From NCBI GenBank assembly GCA_017398585.1, contig JAFQFS010000156.1, positions 33,259-97,258 on the forward strand: a stretch of DNA of 64,000 nt. Reading direction: 5' to 3'. Positions within the stretch are counted from its first letter, which is position 1; each line of letters opens with the position of its first letter. Source of the stretch: Clostridia bacterium. Its GTDB lineage: Bacteria > Bacillota > Clostridia > Oscillospirales > CAG-272. The notes under the pieces were generated by a model. It had not been told where the DNA came from. It did no database searches and was given only the letters and a program-made list of their open reading frames with translations. The position numbers were made by a program, and so were the translations under genes. Shown here piece by piece: positions 8,623 to 42,558 of this stretch.

Positions 8623-11133
8623 ATGATGGATACAGTAAAATTCAGAGATCCGTCCCTTCCGATCGAGGAGAGGGTACAGGATCTGATGTTGCGCATGACG
8701 ATCCGTGAGAAGATTGCGGTAATTATTGAAACCTCCCCTGCCAACGAACGTCTCGGGATTCCGAAATACAACCACGGCAACGAAGCTCTGCACGGTGTTG
8801 TCCGTCCCGGGCGTTTTACCGTCTTCCCACAGGCGATCGCGCTCGGTGCAACGTTTGACGATACCCTGATCGAGGAGATCGCCGATGCGATCTCGGACGA
8901 ATCGCGCGCCGTTTATCATCACGGCAAGGGTGTCTGTGTCACAGAGGAGGAATACGAGGGACGGTACAACGGCCTTCTGACCTTCTGGTCGCCGGACCTT
9001 AATATCTGCCGCGACCCCCGCTGGGGCAGAACGGGAGAAACGTACGGGGAGGATCCGTATCTTGCCGGAAAAATGGGTGCGGCATTTGTGCGCGGTCTGC
9101 AGGGCAAGGACCCCAGATATCTGAAAGCGGTTGCGACACCGAAGCATTATACGGCGAACAACGAGGAGCATAACCGCTTCAGCTGCAATGCGGAAATGAG
9201 CGAAAAGACGCTCCGGGAGTATCATCTGGAACCGTTCCGCAGGGCGGTTGAGGAAGGACATCCCGCGGCGGTCATGGCGGCATACAATGCGATCAACGGC
9301 GAACCCTGTCATCAGAATCCGTATCTCTTAAAGACGATTCTGCGCGACGAATGGGGCTTTGACGGATATGTGGTCTCCGACTGCAGCGGCATTGCCCGGC
9401 TCTGGGACGCCCATCACAAGCATGAGGATCCCGCGGATGCTGCATCGGCGGCGCTGAATGCGGGTGTCGATCTGGAATGCGGAAGCTACAGCCCGTATGA
9501 ACATTTTTATATGGAATTTCTGGAACGTCAGCTTGCCTGCGGAAAAACGACGGAGGCGCGTATTGACGAAGCCTGCCGCCGTGTGCTGACCGCACGGTTC
9601 CGGCTCGGTCAGTTTGATCCCGAGGAGGACGTTCCGTTCAGTAAGATCCCGCTGTCCGTGGTCGGATGCGAGCGTCACGCCGAACTTGCCTACCGTGCAG
9701 CGGCAGAATCCATTGTTCTGCTGAAAAATAACGGAATTCTTCCGCTCCGTCCGGACATGAAGGTTGCCGTCGTCGGCAACAATGCCCATCTGTGCCAGTT
9801 CGGGGACTACAGCGGCCGGCCGAAGAACACGCCGGTATCTCCTCTGGACGGTATCCGTGCGGCAGGCAGCGAAAACGTAAGCTCCGTCCGTTTTATGGGA
9901 ATCCGTTCCGCGGAGGACTATACCGTCATTACCGGCGAATATCTGCGCGATCCCGACGGCAATCCCGGTCTGCGCGGCAGTTATTACAACAATGCCGGAC
10001 TTCTCGGGAACCATAAAGTCCGTACGGACGCGGCGATCGACTTTGCGTGGCGTGACCAGATGCCCGATCCGTACATTGAAGTACCTCAGTATTCCATCCG
10101 ATGGGAGGGTACGCTTTGTCCTGAGGTCAGCGGTACCTATTTCCTGCGTCTGACTTACAGCGGCTGTGCACCGTGTGAGACTCCGAAGATCACGCTTGAC
10201 GGGGAACCGACCGGCACACAGACGGCAATTTCCCTTGAAGCGGGTACGAAGCATCCCATCACTGTGGAATATGTAAAATCCGATGAGAATCCGTCGATCC
10301 GTCTGATGTGGATCATGCCTTCCTCCGGGGAAGAAGGACTCTTCGGGGCGGAATGCAGAGCCGCACGTGAGGCGGACGCCGTCGTTGCCGTCGTGGGTCT
10401 AGGCAGGGAATACGAGAGTGAGGGGAAGGACAAGGATTCCCTGAATCTTCCTCCGGAGCAGGAAGAACTTCTGCGCCGTCTGTGGGAGGTCAATCCGAAT
10501 CTGATCGTCGTTCTTGAGACGGGCAGTCCCATGACGATTCCGGACATTCACGAACATTCTGCCGCTGTGATCGAAGCATGGTATCCCGGTGAGTCGGGCG
10601 GCCGTGCACTGGCGGATATTCTGTACGGTAAGGTCAGCCCCTCCGGACGTCTCTGCGCATCCTTCCCGATGTCCCCGGATGATATCCCCGCATTCAATGA
10701 CTACGAAATGTCCCACGGCAGGACGTATATGTACAATACAAACATGCCGCTGTATCCGTTCGGCTTCGGTCTGTCCTATACGACGTTCGCATACTCCGAC
10801 CTCTCTGCGGATCGGAATACGGTCTCGGTCCGGGTGAAAAACACGGGCAGCCGTGCCGGCGATGAGGTCGTACAGCTGTATCTTGACAGCGCGGGATGTT
10901 CGAATCAGCCGATGCTCCGTCTGGTCCGCTTCAAGAGGGTCACTCTTGCGGCAGGAGAGGAGCAGACCGTGGTCTTTGATCTGGATGACCGCTGCTTCAC
11001 GCTGTTCTCCGATGAGGGAAACGAGCAGTTTGTGAACGGTACGTACAAGGTTTTCGCGGGCGGATCTCTGCCCACGGAGCGCAGCCTTGTTCTTGGTGCC
11101 GCACCGACGGTCAGCGCGGAGATCACCGTCTGA
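8623..11133 (+). CDS. GH3 beta-glucosidase/beta-xylosidase with inserted PA14-like domain
   Basis: 836 aa. GH3 N-domain (LGIPKYNHGNEALHGV), nucleophile region GFDGYVVSDCSGI, PA14-like stretch GLRGSYYNNAGLLGNHKVRTDAAIDFAW, and a C-terminal FnIII-like end. Confidence 0.9.
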   Translation: MMDTVKFRDPSLPIEERVQDLMLRMTIREKIAVIIETSPANERLGIPKYNHGNEALHGVVRPGRFTVFPQAIALGATFDDTLIEEIADAISDESRAVYHHGKGVCVTEEEYEGRYNGLLTFWSPDLNICRDPRWGRTGETYGEDPYLAGKMGAAFVRGLQGKDPRYLKAVATPKHYTANNEEHNRFSCNAEMSEKTLREYHLEPFRRAVEEGHPAAVMAAYNAINGEPCHQNPYLLKTILRDEWGFDGYVVSDCSGIARLWDAHHKHEDPADAASAALNAGVDLECGSYSPYEHFYMEFLERQLACGKTTEARIDEACRRVLTARFRLGQFDPEEDVPFSKIPLSVVGCERHAELAYRAAAESIVLLKNNGILPLRPDMKVAVVGNNAHLCQFGDYSGRPKNTPVSPLDGIRAAGSENVSSVRFMGIRSAEDYTVITGEYLRDPDGNPGLRGSYYNNAGLLGNHKVRTDAAIDFAWRDQMPDPYIEVPQYSIRWEGTLCPEVSGTYFLRLTYSGCAPCETPKITLDGEPTGTQTAISLEAGTKHPITVEYVKSDENPSIRLMWIMPSSGEEGLFGAECRAAREADAVVAVVGLGREYESEGKDKDSLNLPPEQEELLRRLWEVNPNLIVVLETGSPMTIPDIHEHSAAVIEAWYPGESGGRALADILYGKVSPSGRLCASFPMSPDDIPAFNDYEMSHGRTYMYNTNMPLYPFGFGLSYTTFAYSDLSADRNTVSVRVKNTGSRAGDEVVQLYLDSAGCSNQPMLRLVRFKRVTLAAGEEQTVVFDLDDRCFTLFSDEGNEQFVNGTYKVFAGGSLPTERSLVLGAAPTVSAEITV

Positions 11134-38539: not shown

Positions 38540-39607
38540 ATGGCAGAAATGACAGTAAAGGAACGCTTTGCGCGGATGTACGCACACAAGGAAGCGGACC
38601 GGGTACCGATTATCGACAGTCCGTGGGCGGGGACGATCCGCCGCTGGCAGAACGAAGGAATGCCGGAAGGAATGGACTGGAGAGAATTTTTCGGGACCGA
38701 TAAGACGGCAGGGATCGGTGTGGATATTACGCCGCGCTATCCCTACGAAGTGCTTGAAGAAGACGAAACGTCGATCACGTACAAGACGAACTGGGGTGTG
38801 ACGATGCGTCACAACAAGGGTCTGGACTCGACGCCGGAATTCCTCGACTACACGGTAACCGATCCGGCGGCATGGGAAGACTGCAAGCGCCGGATGTACG
38901 AAGGGGAAGGACGTATCGACTGGAATTACCTGAAGAAAGCGTATCCGAAGTGGCAGGCGGAGGGGCAGTGGATCACAGCGAACTTCTGGTTCGGCTTTGA
39001 CGTGACGCACTCCTGGATGATGGGCACGGAAAACCTGCTGATCGCGATGTACGAAGAGCCGGAGATGGTACAGGATATGTTCAACACGTACCTCGACCGC
39101 TGCATCGACCTGTTCGGGCAGATCTGGGACGCGGGCTACCACTTCGACTGCATCAGCTGGCCGGACGACATGGGCTACAAGGGCACGACGTTCTTCTCGA
39201 ACGAAATGTACCGCGAAATGCTGAAGCCCGTTCACAAGCGCGCGGTTGACTGGGCGCACAATCACGGCATCTACGCGCATCTCCACTCCTGCGGCAACAT
39301 CATGAGCCGCATGGACGACCTGATGGACATCGGTCTCGACGCTTTGAACCCGCTCGAAGTCAAAGCGGGCATGGAACCCCTGACCCTGAAGGAAAAATAC
39401 GGCGACAAGCTCGTCCTTCACGGCGGCGTCAACGCCGTTCTCTGGGACGACAAGGAAGCCATCATCGAAGAAATTCGCCGTGTCATCCCCGCTCTCAAGG
39501 AAAACGGCGGCTACATCTTCTCCTCCGACCACTCCGTCCCCAATTCCGTAAGTCTTGAGAACTTCCGTGCGATCGTGGAAGAAATCAAGATTGTCGGGAA
39601 GTATTGA
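38540..39607 (+). CDS. uroporphyrinogen decarboxylase (URO-D) family protein, second paralog
   Basis: 355 aa. MAEMTVKERFARMYAHKEADRVPIIDSPW..., HLHSCGN and LNPLEVKAGM blocks are typical of URO-D/MtaA-like TIM barrels. Confidence 0.7.
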   Translation: MAEMTVKERFARMYAHKEADRVPIIDSPWAGTIRRWQNEGMPEGMDWREFFGTDKTAGIGVDITPRYPYEVLEEDETSITYKTNWGVTMRHNKGLDSTPEFLDYTVTDPAAWEDCKRRMYEGEGRIDWNYLKKAYPKWQAEGQWITANFWFGFDVTHSWMMGTENLLIAMYEEPEMVQDMFNTYLDRCIDLFGQIWDAGYHFDCISWPDDMGYKGTTFFSNEMYREMLKPVHKRAVDWAHNHGIYAHLHSCGNIMSRMDDLMDIGLDALNPLEVKAGMEPLTLKEKYGDKLVLHGGVNAVLWDDKEAIIEEIRRVIPALKENGGYIFSSDHSVPNSVSLENFRAIVEEIKIVGKY

Positions 39608-39628
39608 GTTACAAAATAGCGTTTTTTC

Positions 39629-39660
39629 TTGAGGGGAACTTTTGAAAAAGTTCCCCTCAA
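39629..39660. repeat. GGGGAAC-TTTT/AAAA-GTTCCCC palindrome, copy 2
   Basis: TTGAGGGGAACTTTTGAAAAAGTTCCCCTCAA, 22 nt after the URO-D gene stop. Confidence 0.75.
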
Positions 39661-39668
39661 ACTCCCTT

Positions 39669-39691
39669 CAAAACTTTTTAATCTGTTGTAG
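39669..39691 (+). repeat. 22-nt motif copy A (left inverted repeat of the 39.7-40.2 kb element)
   Basis: CAAAACTTTTTAATCTGTTGTAG. The last 12 nt are identical to the reverse complement of 40244-40255. Confidence 0.6.
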
Positions 39692-40243
39692 CCGGTTTGA
39701 TACAGCGGATTTTTTGTTTATTAGGGGATTTTTATTGGGGCTGTGCGTAGCCATTTAGACTATCCCATCCGCGAAAATATAGACATCCAATTTCTGAGGA
39801 AGGGTGGAGACGGAAGTCAGGGGCCACCGAGACCCTGACTTCCCACGCCGTATGGGATAACCTTAATATAGTGCGAAGGAGAGAAATCCTTCTACATTTT
39901 GTCAGTGTCCGCTCGGCTTGGCTGTCGCCGTCCTCGCTTCTGATAGTTCTATCGGCTGACATACAGTTTGCACGAACGCAAAGCACGAACGGCGGCATGC
40001 CAAGACGAGTTGCGGAGCAACTCGAGCGGATGCTGACGCATCCGTAGCTGAATTCTACAAGGGCGTACTAAATTGAGGTTACGGAAGTGTCGAGCGCTGA
40101 ACAAAATGTCATTTTGTGAAGTCGCTCTCCTATTCCCCATGATTTTTATGACTCCACGGCTATCGCCCGAACAAATTTCAGCCGTACTCCACCGAAAATT
40201 CCTTCCTTTTCCCCCTCTGTATCATGTCAGCCAAACAATATGG
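39692..40243. other. ORF-poor, hairpin-dense segment; candidate structured ncRNA or non-autonomous mobile element
   Basis: Stems found by eye: TATCCCAT...ATGGGATA enclosing GGAAGTCAGGG/CCCTGACTTCC; GAAGGA/TCCTTC; TTTGC/GCAAA; GAGTTGC/GCAACTC; CGGATGC/GCATCCG. Only short, compositionally odd ORFs are present. Confidence 0.35.
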
Positions 40244-40265
40244 CTACAACAGATTGAAGTTTTTG
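40244..40265 (-). repeat. 22-nt motif copy B (right inverted repeat)
   Basis: The plus strand CTACAACAGATTGAAGTTTTTG is the reverse complement of CAAAAACTTCAATCTGTTGTAG. A degenerate half-palindrome follows: CTTTTTTCAAAAAGCGACCGTTCCCC. Confidence 0.6.
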
Positions 40266-40309
40266 CGGAGCTTTTTTCAAAAAGCGACCGTTCCCCTTTT
40301 CCGAAACCC

Positions 40310-40338
40310 TTGCAATTTCTCCCCCTTTATGGCATAAT
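40310..40338 (+). promoter_or_regulatory. candidate promoter for the GH36 gene
   Basis: TTGCAA (40310-40315), 17-nt spacer, TGgCATAAT with CATAAT at 40333-40338. Confidence 0.45.
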
Positions 40339-40377
40339 AGAACCAACAAAATTCCTGAAAACCAAGGAGAAAACCAT

Positions 40378-42558
40378 ATGGGCATTCGTTTTATCGAAGA
40401 TAAGAATATCTTCAAACTTGATACCGCGACCTCGACGTATGTGATCGAGATTTTCGAACAGGGATACCTTCTCTGTCCGTACTACGGCGCGAAGATTCCG
40501 GACGTGAACTTCAAGGGATATATGTTCCGCGAATATTTTGCATCCTTCTCGCCGAACAACGCTTCCGTGCAGGAGCGTTCCTTCTCTGCGGACGTTTCTC
40601 CGCTGGAATACTCCGGTTTCGGCGTCGGTGATTTCCGCAAGACTGCCGTTGCGATCCGCAATGCCGACGGCAACAACTGCACCGACTTCCGTTATGTCAG
40701 CCATAAGATCTACAAGGGCAAGCCCGCTCTTGCCGGTATGCCCGCAACTTACGCGAACAGCGACGACGAGTGTGAAACTCTCGAAATCTACGTCCGTGAT
40801 AAGGTGACCGACACTGCTGCGGTTCTTATGTACACCGTATTCGAAAATTACGGCGCTATGACCAAGGCCGTCCGCATCATCAACGAATCCGACAAGCCGA
40901 TGGATATCGAAAAGGTCTACAGTGCGAGCGTTTCTCTCAACACGATGGATTTCGATATCGTTCATCTCTATGGCCGCCACAACGCGGAACGCAATATGGC
41001 ACGCTCCCCGCTGGAACACGGCCATACTTCGCTGTCCTCCACCCGCGGTTCGTCTTCGCACTTCCATAATCCCTTTGCGGCTCTTGTCCGTCACGGCGCG
41101 GATGAAAACCAGGGCGAAGTTTACGGCTTCAACCTCGTTTACAGCGGCAACTTCGACATCACCGCCGACGTGGACTACTACGAATGTACCCGCGTGAACA
41201 TCGGTATCAATCCCGACGGATTCAACTGGCACCTCGAAGCGGGCGAAGAATTCCAGACGCCCGAAGCCGTTCTCGTCTTCTCTGCGGAAGGTATCGGCGA
41301 AATGTCCCGTATCTTCCACCGTCTGTACAACAACAACCTCATCCGCGGCAGATGGAAGACCGAAAAGCGCCCGCTCCTCATCAACAGCTGGGAAGCTGCT
41401 TATTTCAGCTTTGACACCGACAAGCTCGTTTCCTTCGCGGAACGTGCAAAGGAAGTCGGCATCGAAATGCTCGTTATGGACGACGGCTGGTTCGGCGTCC
41501 GCAATTCCGACAACTGCTCCCTCGGTGACTGGTACGTCAACGAAGACAAGCTCCCGGGTGGTCTCGGCGTGCTGATCGACCGCGTCAATGCGCTCGGTCT
41601 CAAGTTCGGTATCTGGTACGAACCCGAAATGATCTCTCCCGACTCCGACCTCTACCGTGCGCATCCCGACTGGTGCATTCATGTTCCCGGCCGTGACTGC
41701 TCCATCGCACGTCAGCAGTATGTCATCGACATGTCCCGCGCGGACGTCCGCGAAAACATCTACGGTCAGATGAAGGAAGTTCTCTCCAAATACAAGATCG
41801 ACTATGTCAAGTGGGACTTCAACCGCAACATTTCCGAAGCGGGCAGCGCACTTCTCTCCGTTGAACGCGGAGAAGAAATCTTCCACCGCTTCGTTCTCGG
41901 TACCTATGAAGTCATGGACCGACTGACCCGCGACTTCCCGGATATCCTTCTCGAAAACTGCTCCGGCGGCGGCGGACGCTTCGACCCCGCCATGCTGTAC
42001 TATTCTCCCCAGATCTGGGCGTCCGACAATACCGACGCGATCGAACGAATCGCGATCCAGTTCGGTACCTCCATGTGTTATCCGGCATCCACGATGGGCG
42101 CGCATGTTTCCATGAGCCGCCGTACCGGTTTCGAAACCAAGGGCAACGTGGCAATGTGGGGTACGTTCGGATACGAACTTGACCCGAATCACCTGACCGA
42201 AAAGGACATCGAAATCGTGAAGAAGCAGGTAGCGGACTACCACAAGTATTACGATCTCACCCATAGCGGCGACCTCTACCGCATCGTAAATCCGTGGGAC
42301 AACAGCTACTACGCCGCATGGGAACTCGTATCCCCCGACAAGAGCGAAATGCTGTTTACCCTCGTGAACATGCGCTACTACCACTGCAACAAGCGCATCA
42401 TCCGCTTCCGCGGTCTTGACGCAGACAAGACTTACCGTCTTGAAGAAAATGGCGAACTCTACTCCGGCGCATTCCTCATGAATGCCGGTCTGAACGTCTC
42501 CCGCATGCGCAGCGGCACCGGCGACAGCTTCACCCTGCATTTTGTGGAACAGAAATAA
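40378..42558 (+). CDS. GH36 alpha-galactosidase
   Basis: 726 aa. LLINSWEAAYFSF, EMLVMDDGWFG, IDYVKWDFNRN and LENCSGGGGRFD are the classic melibiase/GH36 blocks. Confidence 0.9.
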   Translation: MGIRFIEDKNIFKLDTATSTYVIEIFEQGYLLCPYYGAKIPDVNFKGYMFREYFASFSPNNASVQERSFSADVSPLEYSGFGVGDFRKTAVAIRNADGNNCTDFRYVSHKIYKGKPALAGMPATYANSDDECETLEIYVRDKVTDTAAVLMYTVFENYGAMTKAVRIINESDKPMDIEKVYSASVSLNTMDFDIVHLYGRHNAERNMARSPLEHGHTSLSSTRGSSSHFHNPFAALVRHGADENQGEVYGFNLVYSGNFDITADVDYYECTRVNIGINPDGFNWHLEAGEEFQTPEAVLVFSAEGIGEMSRIFHRLYNNNLIRGRWKTEKRPLLINSWEAAYFSFDTDKLVSFAERAKEVGIEMLVMDDGWFGVRNSDNCSLGDWYVNEDKLPGGLGVLIDRVNALGLKFGIWYEPEMISPDSDLYRAHPDWCIHVPGRDCSIARQQYVIDMSRADVRENIYGQMKEVLSKYKIDYVKWDFNRNISEAGSALLSVERGEEIFHRFVLGTYEVMDRLTRDFPDILLENCSGGGGRFDPAMLYYSPQIWASDNTDAIERIAIQFGTSMCYPASTMGAHVSMSRRTGFETKGNVAMWGTFGYELDPNHLTEKDIEIVKKQVADYHKYYDLTHSGDLYRIVNPWDNSYYAAWELVSPDKSEMLFTLVNMRYYHCNKRIIRFRGLDADKTYRLEENGELYSGAFLMNAGLNVSRMRSGTGDSFTLHFVEQK

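Follow-up and report, generated by a model that had tools for sequence, protein, structure and literature searches.

What occupies the 0.7-kb gap between two genes in a 64-kb stretch of DNA (the window) from an uncultured ruminant-gut Oscillospiraceae bacterium MAG, here called G000? The gap separates a URO-D-family gene from a GH36 alpha-galactosidase gene, and a preliminary description of the DNA had read it as a MITE-like non-autonomous element, a structured non-coding RNA gene, or both. Our analysis identifies the element as a DNA repeat, related to the REP/BIME/MITE type but very large, and not an RNA gene. More specifically, the gap probably holds a member of a non-coding family of composite palindromic (foldback) intergenic DNA repeats that is present in high copy, is restricted to one clade and has the character of a giant REP/BIME/REPIN-type mosaic.

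Architecture of the intergenic element

We aligned 15 full copies together with their flanks and found that homology between copies extends from just after the upstream stop codon (39605–39607) to about 40340. The element occupies the whole intergenic spacer, about 39609–40340, and the limits first proposed, 39629–40310, were too narrow and left out a promoter-like end. Its overall architecture is a degenerate palindrome of 0.62–0.72 kb with conserved side hairpins and two interchangeable REP-like caps, H1 and H2. The inverted repeats, hairpins and stems that had been described were all recovered in place by sequence reading and repeat search. The features of the window copy are as follows, with strand given where a feature has one.

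38540–39607, plus strand: upstream gene, URO-D family (ORF list; Pfam PF01208, E 4e-23)
39605–39607, plus strand: TGA stop of the URO-D-family gene (ORF list); the element starts 1–2 nt downstream
39609–39628: left terminal box TTACAAAATAGCGTTTTTTC (alignment of 15 full copies; orthologous loci in the same-genus species G006 and G009)
39629–39660: cap H1, a perfect 15-bp hairpin TTGAGGGGAACTTTT / AAAAGTTCCCCTCAA with arms at 39629–39643 and 39646–39660 (inverted-repeat search)
39661–39693: H1 tail ACTCCCTTC, then left closing arm AATCTGTTGTAGCC at 39680–39693 (sequence reading, repeat search, alignment)
39694–40241: core, a degenerate palindrome centred near 39962–39969 (self reverse-complement alignment, consensus fold)
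39812–39843: invariant 11-bp hairpin GGAAGTCAGGG / CCCTGACTTCC with arms at 39812–39822 and 39833–39843 (repeat search, alignment)
39917–40003: central 16-bp stem CTTGGCTGTCGCCGTCC / GAACGGCGGCATGCCAAG around the palindrome centre (consensus fold)
40007–40023: optional small hairpin GAGTTGC-GGA-GCAACTC, in about half of G000 copies (alignment)
40027–40044: hairpin CGGATGC-TGAC-GCATCCG at a variable position where other copies have other sequences (alignment)
40092–40127: most conserved hairpin block GAGCGCTGAACAAAAYGNNRTTTTGWGAAGTCGCTC (alignment, conservation profile)
40242–40258: right closing arm GGCTACAACAGATTGAA, complement of 39677–39693 (repeat search)
40256–40296: inverted cap H2, GAAGTTTTTGCGGAGCTTTTTTCAAAAAGCGACCGTTCCCC; a small hairpin lies at 40270–40285 (alignment)
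40310–40338, plus strand: predicted outward sigma-70-type promoter on H2, with −35 TTGCAA at 40310–40315, a 17-nt spacer with TG and −10 CATAAT at 40333–40338
40364–40380, plus strand: Shine-Dalgarno AAGGAG and ATG (40378) of the GH36 gene (sequence reading, ORF list)
40378–42558, plus strand: downstream gene, GH36 alpha-galactosidase (Pfam Melibiase, E 1.6e-143)

At the left end, the homolog of the terminal box in other copies, A(T/C)AAAAT-ATAG-TTTTCT, overlaps or provides the TAA stop of the upstream gene, and the H1 tail is a mirror repeat of the H1 pyrimidine arm. Two GGGGAAC palindromes had been noted at the ends; the left is indeed the perfect H1 hairpin, but the right (40270–40296), taken for a degenerate copy of it, is the distinct module H2, present in complete form in other copies, and not a decayed left hairpin. 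The closing stem of 14–20 bp (AATCTGTTGTAGCC...) lies within a long-range inverted repeat, 39677–39693 / 40242–40258, that matches at 94% over 17 nt and includes AATCTGTTGTAGCC and its complement GGCTACAACAGATT. The core it delimits measures about 530 nt and contains invariant blocks at 39812–39821, 39833–39844, 39914–39923, 40044–40054, 40096–40106 and 40118–40127, as determined from a conservation profile of 27 copies in three species. The 11-bp hairpin is enclosed by a stem at 39753–39771 / 39849–39867, its loop holds an extra small inserted hairpin in two G000 copies, and several copies of it stand alone in species G018. In the inner stem of the 40092–40127 block, the window copy has the variant AAAATGTCATTTTGTG and the majority of copies have AAAACGGAGTTTTGAG.

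The gap had been described as having no credible ORF, and this holds: it contains four ORFs of 58–123 amino acids with no Pfam match, and the longest frame, a minus-strand one, lacks 3-base periodicity across copies (0.257/0.269/0.239). A decayed gene was considered and rejected, as minus-strand frames of up to 160 codons are interrupted by stops in other copies and show neither a Pfam match nor a third-position excess. Cap pairs in G000 enclose no ORF, and none turned up in the G006, G009 and RGIG MAG loci that were read.

Copy number, distribution and homogenisation

A search for further copies, proposed with the preliminary description, revealed that the element is multi-copy in its own genome and present in sister species. 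G000, whose assembly is only 73.6% complete, contains 63 copies or fragments (200 nt or longer) at 72–87% identity; these are borne on 64 of 178 contigs, account for 0.82% of the assembly and contain 51 of its 356 contig ends. Short doublets and internally deleted derivatives exist as well. Of the other species of the genus, G006, G009 and G048 have copies, and G010, G018 and G019 have fragments. A family-wide search of 300 genomes from 97 genera gave no match, and of 185,579 species genomes only four others, all animal-gut MAGs, contain an exact 32-mer pattern from the 40092–40127 block.

At three orthologous sites, copies in G000 and G009 are 56–62% identical and the flanking genes about 90% identical, whereas the same G000 copies match their G000 paralogs at a median of 78–80%, and a tree of copies groups them by genome. 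This excess of likeness among paralogs (about 80%) over orthologous-site copies points to concerted evolution or turnover, with copies gained, lost, rearranged and homogenised inside each genome. The closest pair of copies in G000 is at most 87% identical, unlike what is expected of an actively bursting MITE or REPIN population. Copies are kept at orthologous sites across species, including one in the atp operon, in the spacer that separates atpB from atpE. In the conservation profile several core blocks are invariant in three species and the termini are the most variable part, a pattern opposite to that of a classical MITE and one that may reflect a function of the core.

Element sites are occupied in some species and unoccupied in others. 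Queries made from joined flanks recovered element-free orthologous sites in G006, G048 and G044 that are diverged spacers or carry remnants (GTGCGGATTG; promoter module), so that insertion and deletion look alike at these sites and a target duplication is unreadable there. Strain-level contigs retrieved through three flanking proteins were all filled or broken within the element, with no sign of recent movement. An origin from a plasmid or phage was considered and set aside, as blastn returned no match.

Polarity of the end modules

The two caps also exist outside complete elements. We counted 111 non-overlapping matches to the modules in G000 (49 H1, 62 H2), occurring as solos, doublets and caps, and complete elements combine them as H1...H2, H2...H1 or H2...H2, with either module at either end. 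Their orientation relative to genes is strongly polar. Judged by gene calls from a crude codon-usage caller made for this analysis, 23 of 37 H1 modules turn their outer side toward the 3′ end of a gene, 5–34 nt past the stop codon, and 44 of 55 H2 modules turn theirs toward a gene 5′ end (binomial p 9e-6). The contrast between the modules gives a Fisher p of 6e-5, although H1 and H2 counts are not mutually independent.

A promoter-like sequence, TTGCAA-N17-TATAAT, is often attached to H2 and has its window counterpart at 40310–40338; the copy in the gap belongs to a subfamily whose H2 bears an entire predicted promoter directed outward. A strict promoter at a fixed offset from H2 accompanies 11 of 57 H2 ends, compared with a background of 0.0009 per scanned window (0.09%), and the hexamers are kept in the G006 and G009 orthologs with a different spacer between them. 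From these sequence features we infer promoter and 3′-hairpin roles for the caps: the next gene probably receives its promoter from the outer (H2) end, and at this locus the presumed beneficiary is the GH36 alpha-galactosidase gene.

Relationship to known repeats and alternative explanations

Several properties place the element near the REP, BIME and REPIN sequences of Enterobacteria and Pseudomonas, which likewise are high-copy extragenic palindromes arranged in inverted-orientation mosaics, lie at gene ends and between operon genes, have co-varying hairpin arms and show no evident target duplication. The differences are substantial. REPs measure 20–40 bp and BIME/REPIN units are well below 0.2 kb (PMC2817692, PMC3116915, PMC3733652; review PMC3184786), whereas the unit here spans 0.62–0.72 kb with a conserved 530-nt core. 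At one end of REP hairpins a GTAG or CGTC tetranucleotide is conserved (PMC3733652); GTAG/CTAC is present in the element too (CTGTTGTAGCC / GGCTACAACAG), located within the closing stem instead of forming an unpaired tag beside a short hairpin. The copies, at 72–87% identity, do not cluster tightly about a master sequence, the host belongs to the Clostridia, and searches of the genome and of the surroundings of the caps in relatives yielded no RAYT (Y1) gene. The Y1/HUH family PF01797 has no match in G000, and Y1 occurs in 21 of 53 genomes of the genus with a distribution that does not follow the element. The Y1 protein of G006 was rejected as a partner, being an ordinary IS200-type TnpA with no caps nearby.

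Two further comparisons concern the ends. Neisseria REP2 and Borrelia IR-A repeats equip many unrelated genes with a promoter, a ribosome-binding site and a start context (PMC3184786), much as the H2-promoter-leader end would do at 10 or more loci, but Neisseria REP2 is about 120–150 bp, has no foldback core and no stop-codon cap at its other end, and shares no sequence similarity with the element. Cap H1, a hairpin whose pyrimidine arm recurs next to it as a mirror repeat (TTCCCCTC-AAA-CTCCC...), has the layout that an intrastrand triplex would require, as in E. coli TMECO, likewise an intergenic motif linked to local variability (PMC4666352); sequence and polarity differ, the third strand in H1 is pyrimidine, and the likeness is limited to the cap and does not extend to the 0.7-kb element.

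A classical MITE, that is, a deleted derivative of a DDE-type IS moving by cut-and-paste through terminal inverted repeats and leaving target-site duplications, is an improbable identity. The element is multi-copy, non-coding and intergenic with imperfect inverted ends of about 60–80 nt, has shorter deletion derivatives and both filled and unfilled orthologous sites, and like Correia/CREE (Neisseria), ERIC and RUP elements it is a non-autonomous intergenic repeat with inverted ends and long hairpins. Correia elements further bear promoters that face outward and are frequently found on the 5′ side of genes, and many MITEs directly adjoin the 3′ ends of genes and are transcribed together with them (PMC3184786). 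However, bacterial MITEs generally stay below 200 bp and reach about 400 bp at the largest; their terminal inverted repeats are defined and they duplicate the target, TA in the case of Correia (PMC3184786). The element exceeds this size, no fixed terminal inverted repeats are common to all copies, its ends being two different modules in any combination that also exist as solo hairpins, and it has no known parent IS. The aligned boundaries of copies show no direct repeats, near-identical pairs are absent, and no longer transposase-bearing relative was seen in G000 or in the G006, G009 and RGIG copies examined. One copy contains a nested genuine MITE with an 8-bp duplication, and this looks quite different from the element. 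Of the original MITE-like reading, then, a repeated, non-autonomous, non-coding element with filled and unfilled sites stands, and fixed terminal repeats, a transposase partner and the usual size do not.

It is similarly doubtful that the family is a host-domesticated element kept by selection and not by selfish spread, with core blocks that bind a host protein (a nucleoid protein, gyrase or an IHF-like factor, as in E. coli BIMEs) or insulate transcription units. The conserved inner blocks and variable termini, the retention at orthologous sites including the atpB–atpE gap, the strong polarity relative to genes and the lack of evident recent transposition all fit such a role. Against it, the family is confined to a few species of a single genus, sister species lose or replace sites at no obvious cost, copies are rearranged and truncated, and no binding protein is known.

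Least probable of all, and very unlikely, is that the copies are structured non-coding RNA genes or a guide or ribozyme RNA of a mobile element, such as HEARO/omega-RNA or an ORF-less group II intron, whose size of about 600 nt the element shares, with the fold representing a functional RNA structure. The predicted fold is very stable (plus strand −227.4 kcal/mol versus −166.7 ± 7.0 for shuffles, z −8.7) and includes blocks and hairpins invariant in three species, but the minus strand folds equally well (−222.4, z −7.7) and wobble at shared pairs is symmetric (53 G-T versus 48 A-C). Long-range pairs show no compensatory excess, with 26 doubly changed cells compared with 24–26 in shuffles, and on this result and the symmetric wobble a rod-like RNA under selection was rejected; pairs of the central 16-bp stem are nearly invariant and thus give no covariation signal either way. 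Local hairpins do retain pairing through double changes, with 80 doubly changed cells versus 41 in all-sequence shuffles and 71 in within-species shuffles (0 of 300 shuffles as high), yet swapping of whole hairpin modules between copies explains this equally well. The Rfam comparison proposed earlier gave no family at the gathering score and only noise for the element at E ≤ 10, with group I/II intron, HEARO and IS605-associated models all empty. Elsewhere in the window, Rfam finds two tRNAs. No conserved internal promoter or terminator is seen in the element, and G000 contains no RT, IscB or TnpB partner gene, TnpB searches giving sub-threshold noise only. Together these results do not support the earlier suggestion of a structured RNA gene.

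Under the reading of a composite palindromic DNA repeat, the element would spread and stay similar as DNA, with recombination or gene conversion between copies the likely route and hairpin-directed transposition by a trans-acting enzyme outside the 74%-complete assembly a possible additional one. It may be tolerated or mildly useful because it would supply a ready-made spacer in place of the intergenic one, giving a stable 3′ hairpin to the upstream URO-D-like mRNA and a promoter and leader to the downstream GH36 alpha-galactosidase gene; RNA from the element would be a read-through by-product and not a functional unit. We see an outside chance of a more ambitious version, in which the family consists of portable stop-to-start cassettes, each with a 3′ hairpin cap, an insulating foldback core with recognised invariant blocks and a promoter-leader cap, copied or homogenised by gene conversion or a hairpin-specific enzyme. 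If so, 30 or more unrelated genes, including the GH36 alpha-galactosidase gene and atpE, would be under a shared, co-evolving control region, and the invariant core blocks would be recognition sites, for protein or RNA, of an undescribed mobilising or regulatory factor.

What is new here is the unusually large size for REP/BIME/MITE-like repeats, the unit being several times larger than those described in bacteria. Such repeats degrade short-read assemblies of gut Oscillospiraceae, and the G000 assembly is fragmented because repeat copies lie at one contig end in seven; annotation pipelines should mask the repeat and not call small ORFs or RNA genes inside it. The greater likeness of paralogs than of orthologous-site copies suggests that homogenisation is active in a lineage that has yielded no REP-type enzyme. 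As the ends are oppositely polar, one abutting stop codons and the other bearing a promoter, a single family may, at dozens of loci, define both the 3′ end of the upstream gene and the transcription start of the downstream gene, and this dual-end control may extend even into the atp operon.

Genomic context and distribution

A repeat search of the window recovered every feature that the preliminary description had listed, all lying in a 770-nt spacer (39608-40377) between two plus-strand genes; the short ORFs of this spacer have no Pfam match.

Features of the spacer and its flanking genes
38540-39607, + strand: URO-D-family gene (PF01208), upstream of the spacer
39629-39660: perfect 15-bp hairpin
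39677-39693 / 40242-40258: 17-nt inverted repeat
39753-39771 / 39849-39867: stem enclosing an 11-bp hairpin (39812-39843)
40007-40023 and 40027-40044: two small hairpins
40310-40338: promoter-like motif TTGCAA-17-CATAAT with TG ahead of the -10, 40 nt before the alpha-galactosidase ATG
40378-42558, + strand: GH36 alpha-galactosidase gene (Melibiase, E 1.6e-143), downstream of the spacer

A MITE-like element had been proposed, and its repeated nature is borne out in the window's own MAG (G000; 3.18 Mb, 178 contigs, 73.6% complete), where 64 contigs carry 63 copies or fragments (200 nt or longer, 72-87% identity), and by others in congeneric genomes. Copies contain 51 of the 356 contig ends in G000, making the repeat a main cause of its assembly breaks. 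Within the genus, copies are numerous in G006, G009 and G048, and G010, G018 and G019 hold fragments only. G018, which lacks the long element, has at least eight solo occurrences, spread over several contigs, of a 47-nt hairpin block equivalent to window positions 39804-39850 (91% identity). Searches of 300 genomes from 97 other genera of the family (two candidates scored per genome), of 16 further families in the same order and of plasmid and phage collections did not find the element. Across 185,579 species genomes, a conserved 32-nt block has exact matches in just four other MAGs (Oscillospiraceae SIG618, Eubacteriales fecal_MAG_213, Clostridia RGIG7288 from buffalo caecum and Clostridia RGIG2226 from goat colon).

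Modular anatomy, turnover and repeat class

Alignment of 15 full copies with their flanks places the homology from just past the upstream stop codon to ~40340 in window coordinates and reveals two interchangeable REP-like hairpin caps. H1 consists of a perfect hairpin, GAGGGGAACC...GGTTCCCCTC, with a mirror-repeat tail behind it, and H2 is GGGGAAACGGTCGCTTTCTTGAAAGAAAGC...GCAAAGAACTTTAAT. Each is found at either end of the element (H1...H2, the arrangement of the window copy; H2...H1; H2...H2), and both also occur solo, as ~100-nt doublets and around internally deleted cores of ~220 nt. The caps enclose AATCTGTTGTAGCC(GGTTTG) and its complement, which pair across ~550 nt, and the core between these closing arms is a degenerate palindrome centered near 39962-39969. 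Copies in G009 align to their own reverse complement over 577 nt at 59%, and symmetric copies in G009 (L074:440-1152; L039, L047) and G048 (L076:429-1202) are dimers of the left arm and its reverse complement, in contrast to the left-arm/right-arm form of the window copy. A comparison of 27 copies drawn from three species shows six invariant blocks and cassette-like variation at the termini and in several inner segments, and some copies carry optional small hairpins (GAGTTGC..GCAACTC, GAGACAC..GTGTCTC or AGACTTCC..GGAAGTCT).

In H1 (window 39629-39672, and in modules genome-wide) a purine/pyrimidine hairpin precedes a mirror copy of its own pyrimidine arm, TTCCCCTC-AAA-CTCCC..., which is the layout required for a predicted intrastrand Py.Pu.Py triplex and is comparable to that of E. 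coli TMECO motifs (PMC4666352). Outside the window, on G000 contig C92 (~10125-10411), one foldback copy is interrupted by a different ~330-nt element that has CCCGTAGTGCCAGT / ACTGGCACTACAGG as terminal inverted repeats and a direct duplication of 8 bp, TAAATTGA; this insert, which lies within the foldback core, is a conventional MITE whose target duplication is clear.

G006 and G009 carry orthologs of the window copy at the same junctions, that of G009 with a different right cap. In G048 (L051, G048:C89), a gene of ~1.1 kb occupies the URO-D-like/GH36 spacer in place of the repeat; its N-terminus resembles, by eye, a bacterial TIR domain (..HIFISYAHRS..WYDEGI..). The C153 site contains the element in G000 and G009 and none in G006 or G048, and further sites filled in G000 are without it in G006 and/or G048 (C97b, C119b) or in G044 (C58). 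Such element-free sites are diverged spacers or retain remnants, for example GTGCGGATTG or a promoter module, so that loss by deletion is as likely as gain by insertion and a target duplication is not readable there; the aligned copies show no direct repeats at their boundaries. Recent movement was not seen, the best G000 pair being 87% identical, and every strain-level contig from other samples either contains the element or breaks within it, with no empty site. At three orthologous sites, G000 and G009 copies are just 56-62% identical beside flanking genes at ~90%, the same G000 copies match their G000 paralogs at a median of 78-80%, and a tree of copies clusters by genome. Paralogs that predate the species split are thus closer than orthologs, which indicates homogenisation or replacement of copies within each genome.

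PF01797 is the Y1/HUH family that includes RAYT and IS200 TnpA. A search with this profile found no match in the 73.6% complete G000 assembly, and TnpB searches there returned noise only. Of 53 genomes of the genus, 21 have Y1 genes, a distribution that does not track the element; the G006 gene was rejected as a partner, being a typical 155-aa IS200 TnpA that neighbors a serine recombinase and has neither H1 nor H2 close by. The incompleteness of G000 leaves room for a mobilising or homogenising agent.

The element works like REP/BIME/REPIN mosaics (PMC3184786, PMC2817692, PMC3116915, PMC3733652) and promoter-bearing MITEs such as Correia and Neisseria REP2 (PMC3184786). We class it as a REP/BIME/MITE-type repeat that departs from those classes in the features defining membership: REP, BIME and REPIN units are RAYT-linked, whereas no RAYT was found in G000; a MITE has a fixed terminal inverted repeat, whereas these ends are not fixed; and the element is several times larger than described units of either kind. 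The earlier MITE-like reading fits the repeated, non-coding nature of the element and not its ends, which are interchangeable modules.

Pairing on the two strands

The preliminary description also raised a structured ncRNA gene. As a single strand, 39669-40265 folds to -227.4 kcal/mol, where shuffles give -166.7 +/- 7.0 (z -8.7). The opposite strand comes close to this (-222.4, z -7.7), the consensus fold is of equal quality on either strand (-192 on plus, -207 on minus) and Rfam contains no matching family, even among hits at E<=10. Across 76 pairs predicted on both strands, G-T (wobble on plus) appears 53 times and A-C (wobble on minus) 48 times, favoring neither strand. The 62 long-range pairs, at least 100 columns apart, contain 26 doubly changed paired cells versus 24-26 in shuffles, a count reached by 106-144 of 300 shuffles, whereas the 84 pairs of local hairpins contain 80 versus 41 (all-sequence shuffles) or 71 (within-species shuffles), reached by none. 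This local excess without long-range compensation identifies the giant fold as an inherited, decaying palindrome, and only the small hairpins are kept paired, either as in REP-type DNA repeats or through exchange of whole hairpin modules; the best local pairing partners shift along the element. A decayed or intact protein gene was rejected, as the minus-strand open frames seen in some copies (up to 160 codons) are broken by stops elsewhere in the family and have no codon-position bias across copies (0.257/0.269/0.239). We therefore conclude against a protein gene and find the RNA-gene reading without support.

Orientation toward genes and a candidate promoter

Using a codon-usage gene caller trained on G000, which recovered the window genes correctly, we observed that overlap with a called gene is confined to 2 of 63 copies and that the caps differ in orientation (Fisher p 6e-5). 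H2 has its outer side toward a gene 5′ end in 44 of 55 cases (binomial p 9e-6), usually with 25-150 nt between it and the start. For H1, the outer side is toward a gene 3′ end in 23 of 37 cases, every one 5-34 nt from the stop; in several copies the TAA stop of the upstream gene lies within the terminal ATAAAAT box. The motif TTGCA(A/C)-N16-18-(T/C)ATAAT is present at 11 of 57 H2 ends against a background of 0.0009 per window scanned, eight of them at one fixed offset, and flanks at these H2 loci are homologous through a purine-rich leader up to the Shine-Dalgarno sequence. Orthologs of the window copy in G006 and G009 retain the hexamers (TTGCAA/TTGCAC, CATAAT/TATAAT) with a changed spacer.

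The module CTTGCAAT(C/T)TCC...TGnTATAAT with its purine-rich leader also lies beside other small hairpins (GAAGATCGTC..GACGATCTTC), including at G000 C97:14327, C90:38513, C102:10810, C98:21124 and others, and occurs in G006 at a site without the long element; the promoter module may be a separable repeat unit.

Within the ATP synthase operon of G000, one full copy (C58 6664-7368) separates atpB from atpE, making a spacer of 727 nt as compared to 89 nt in G044; two independent metagenome assemblies (L114, L115) also have the copy there. We infer that the H1 end would provide a stable 3′ hairpin for the upstream mRNA and the H2 end a promoter for the downstream gene.
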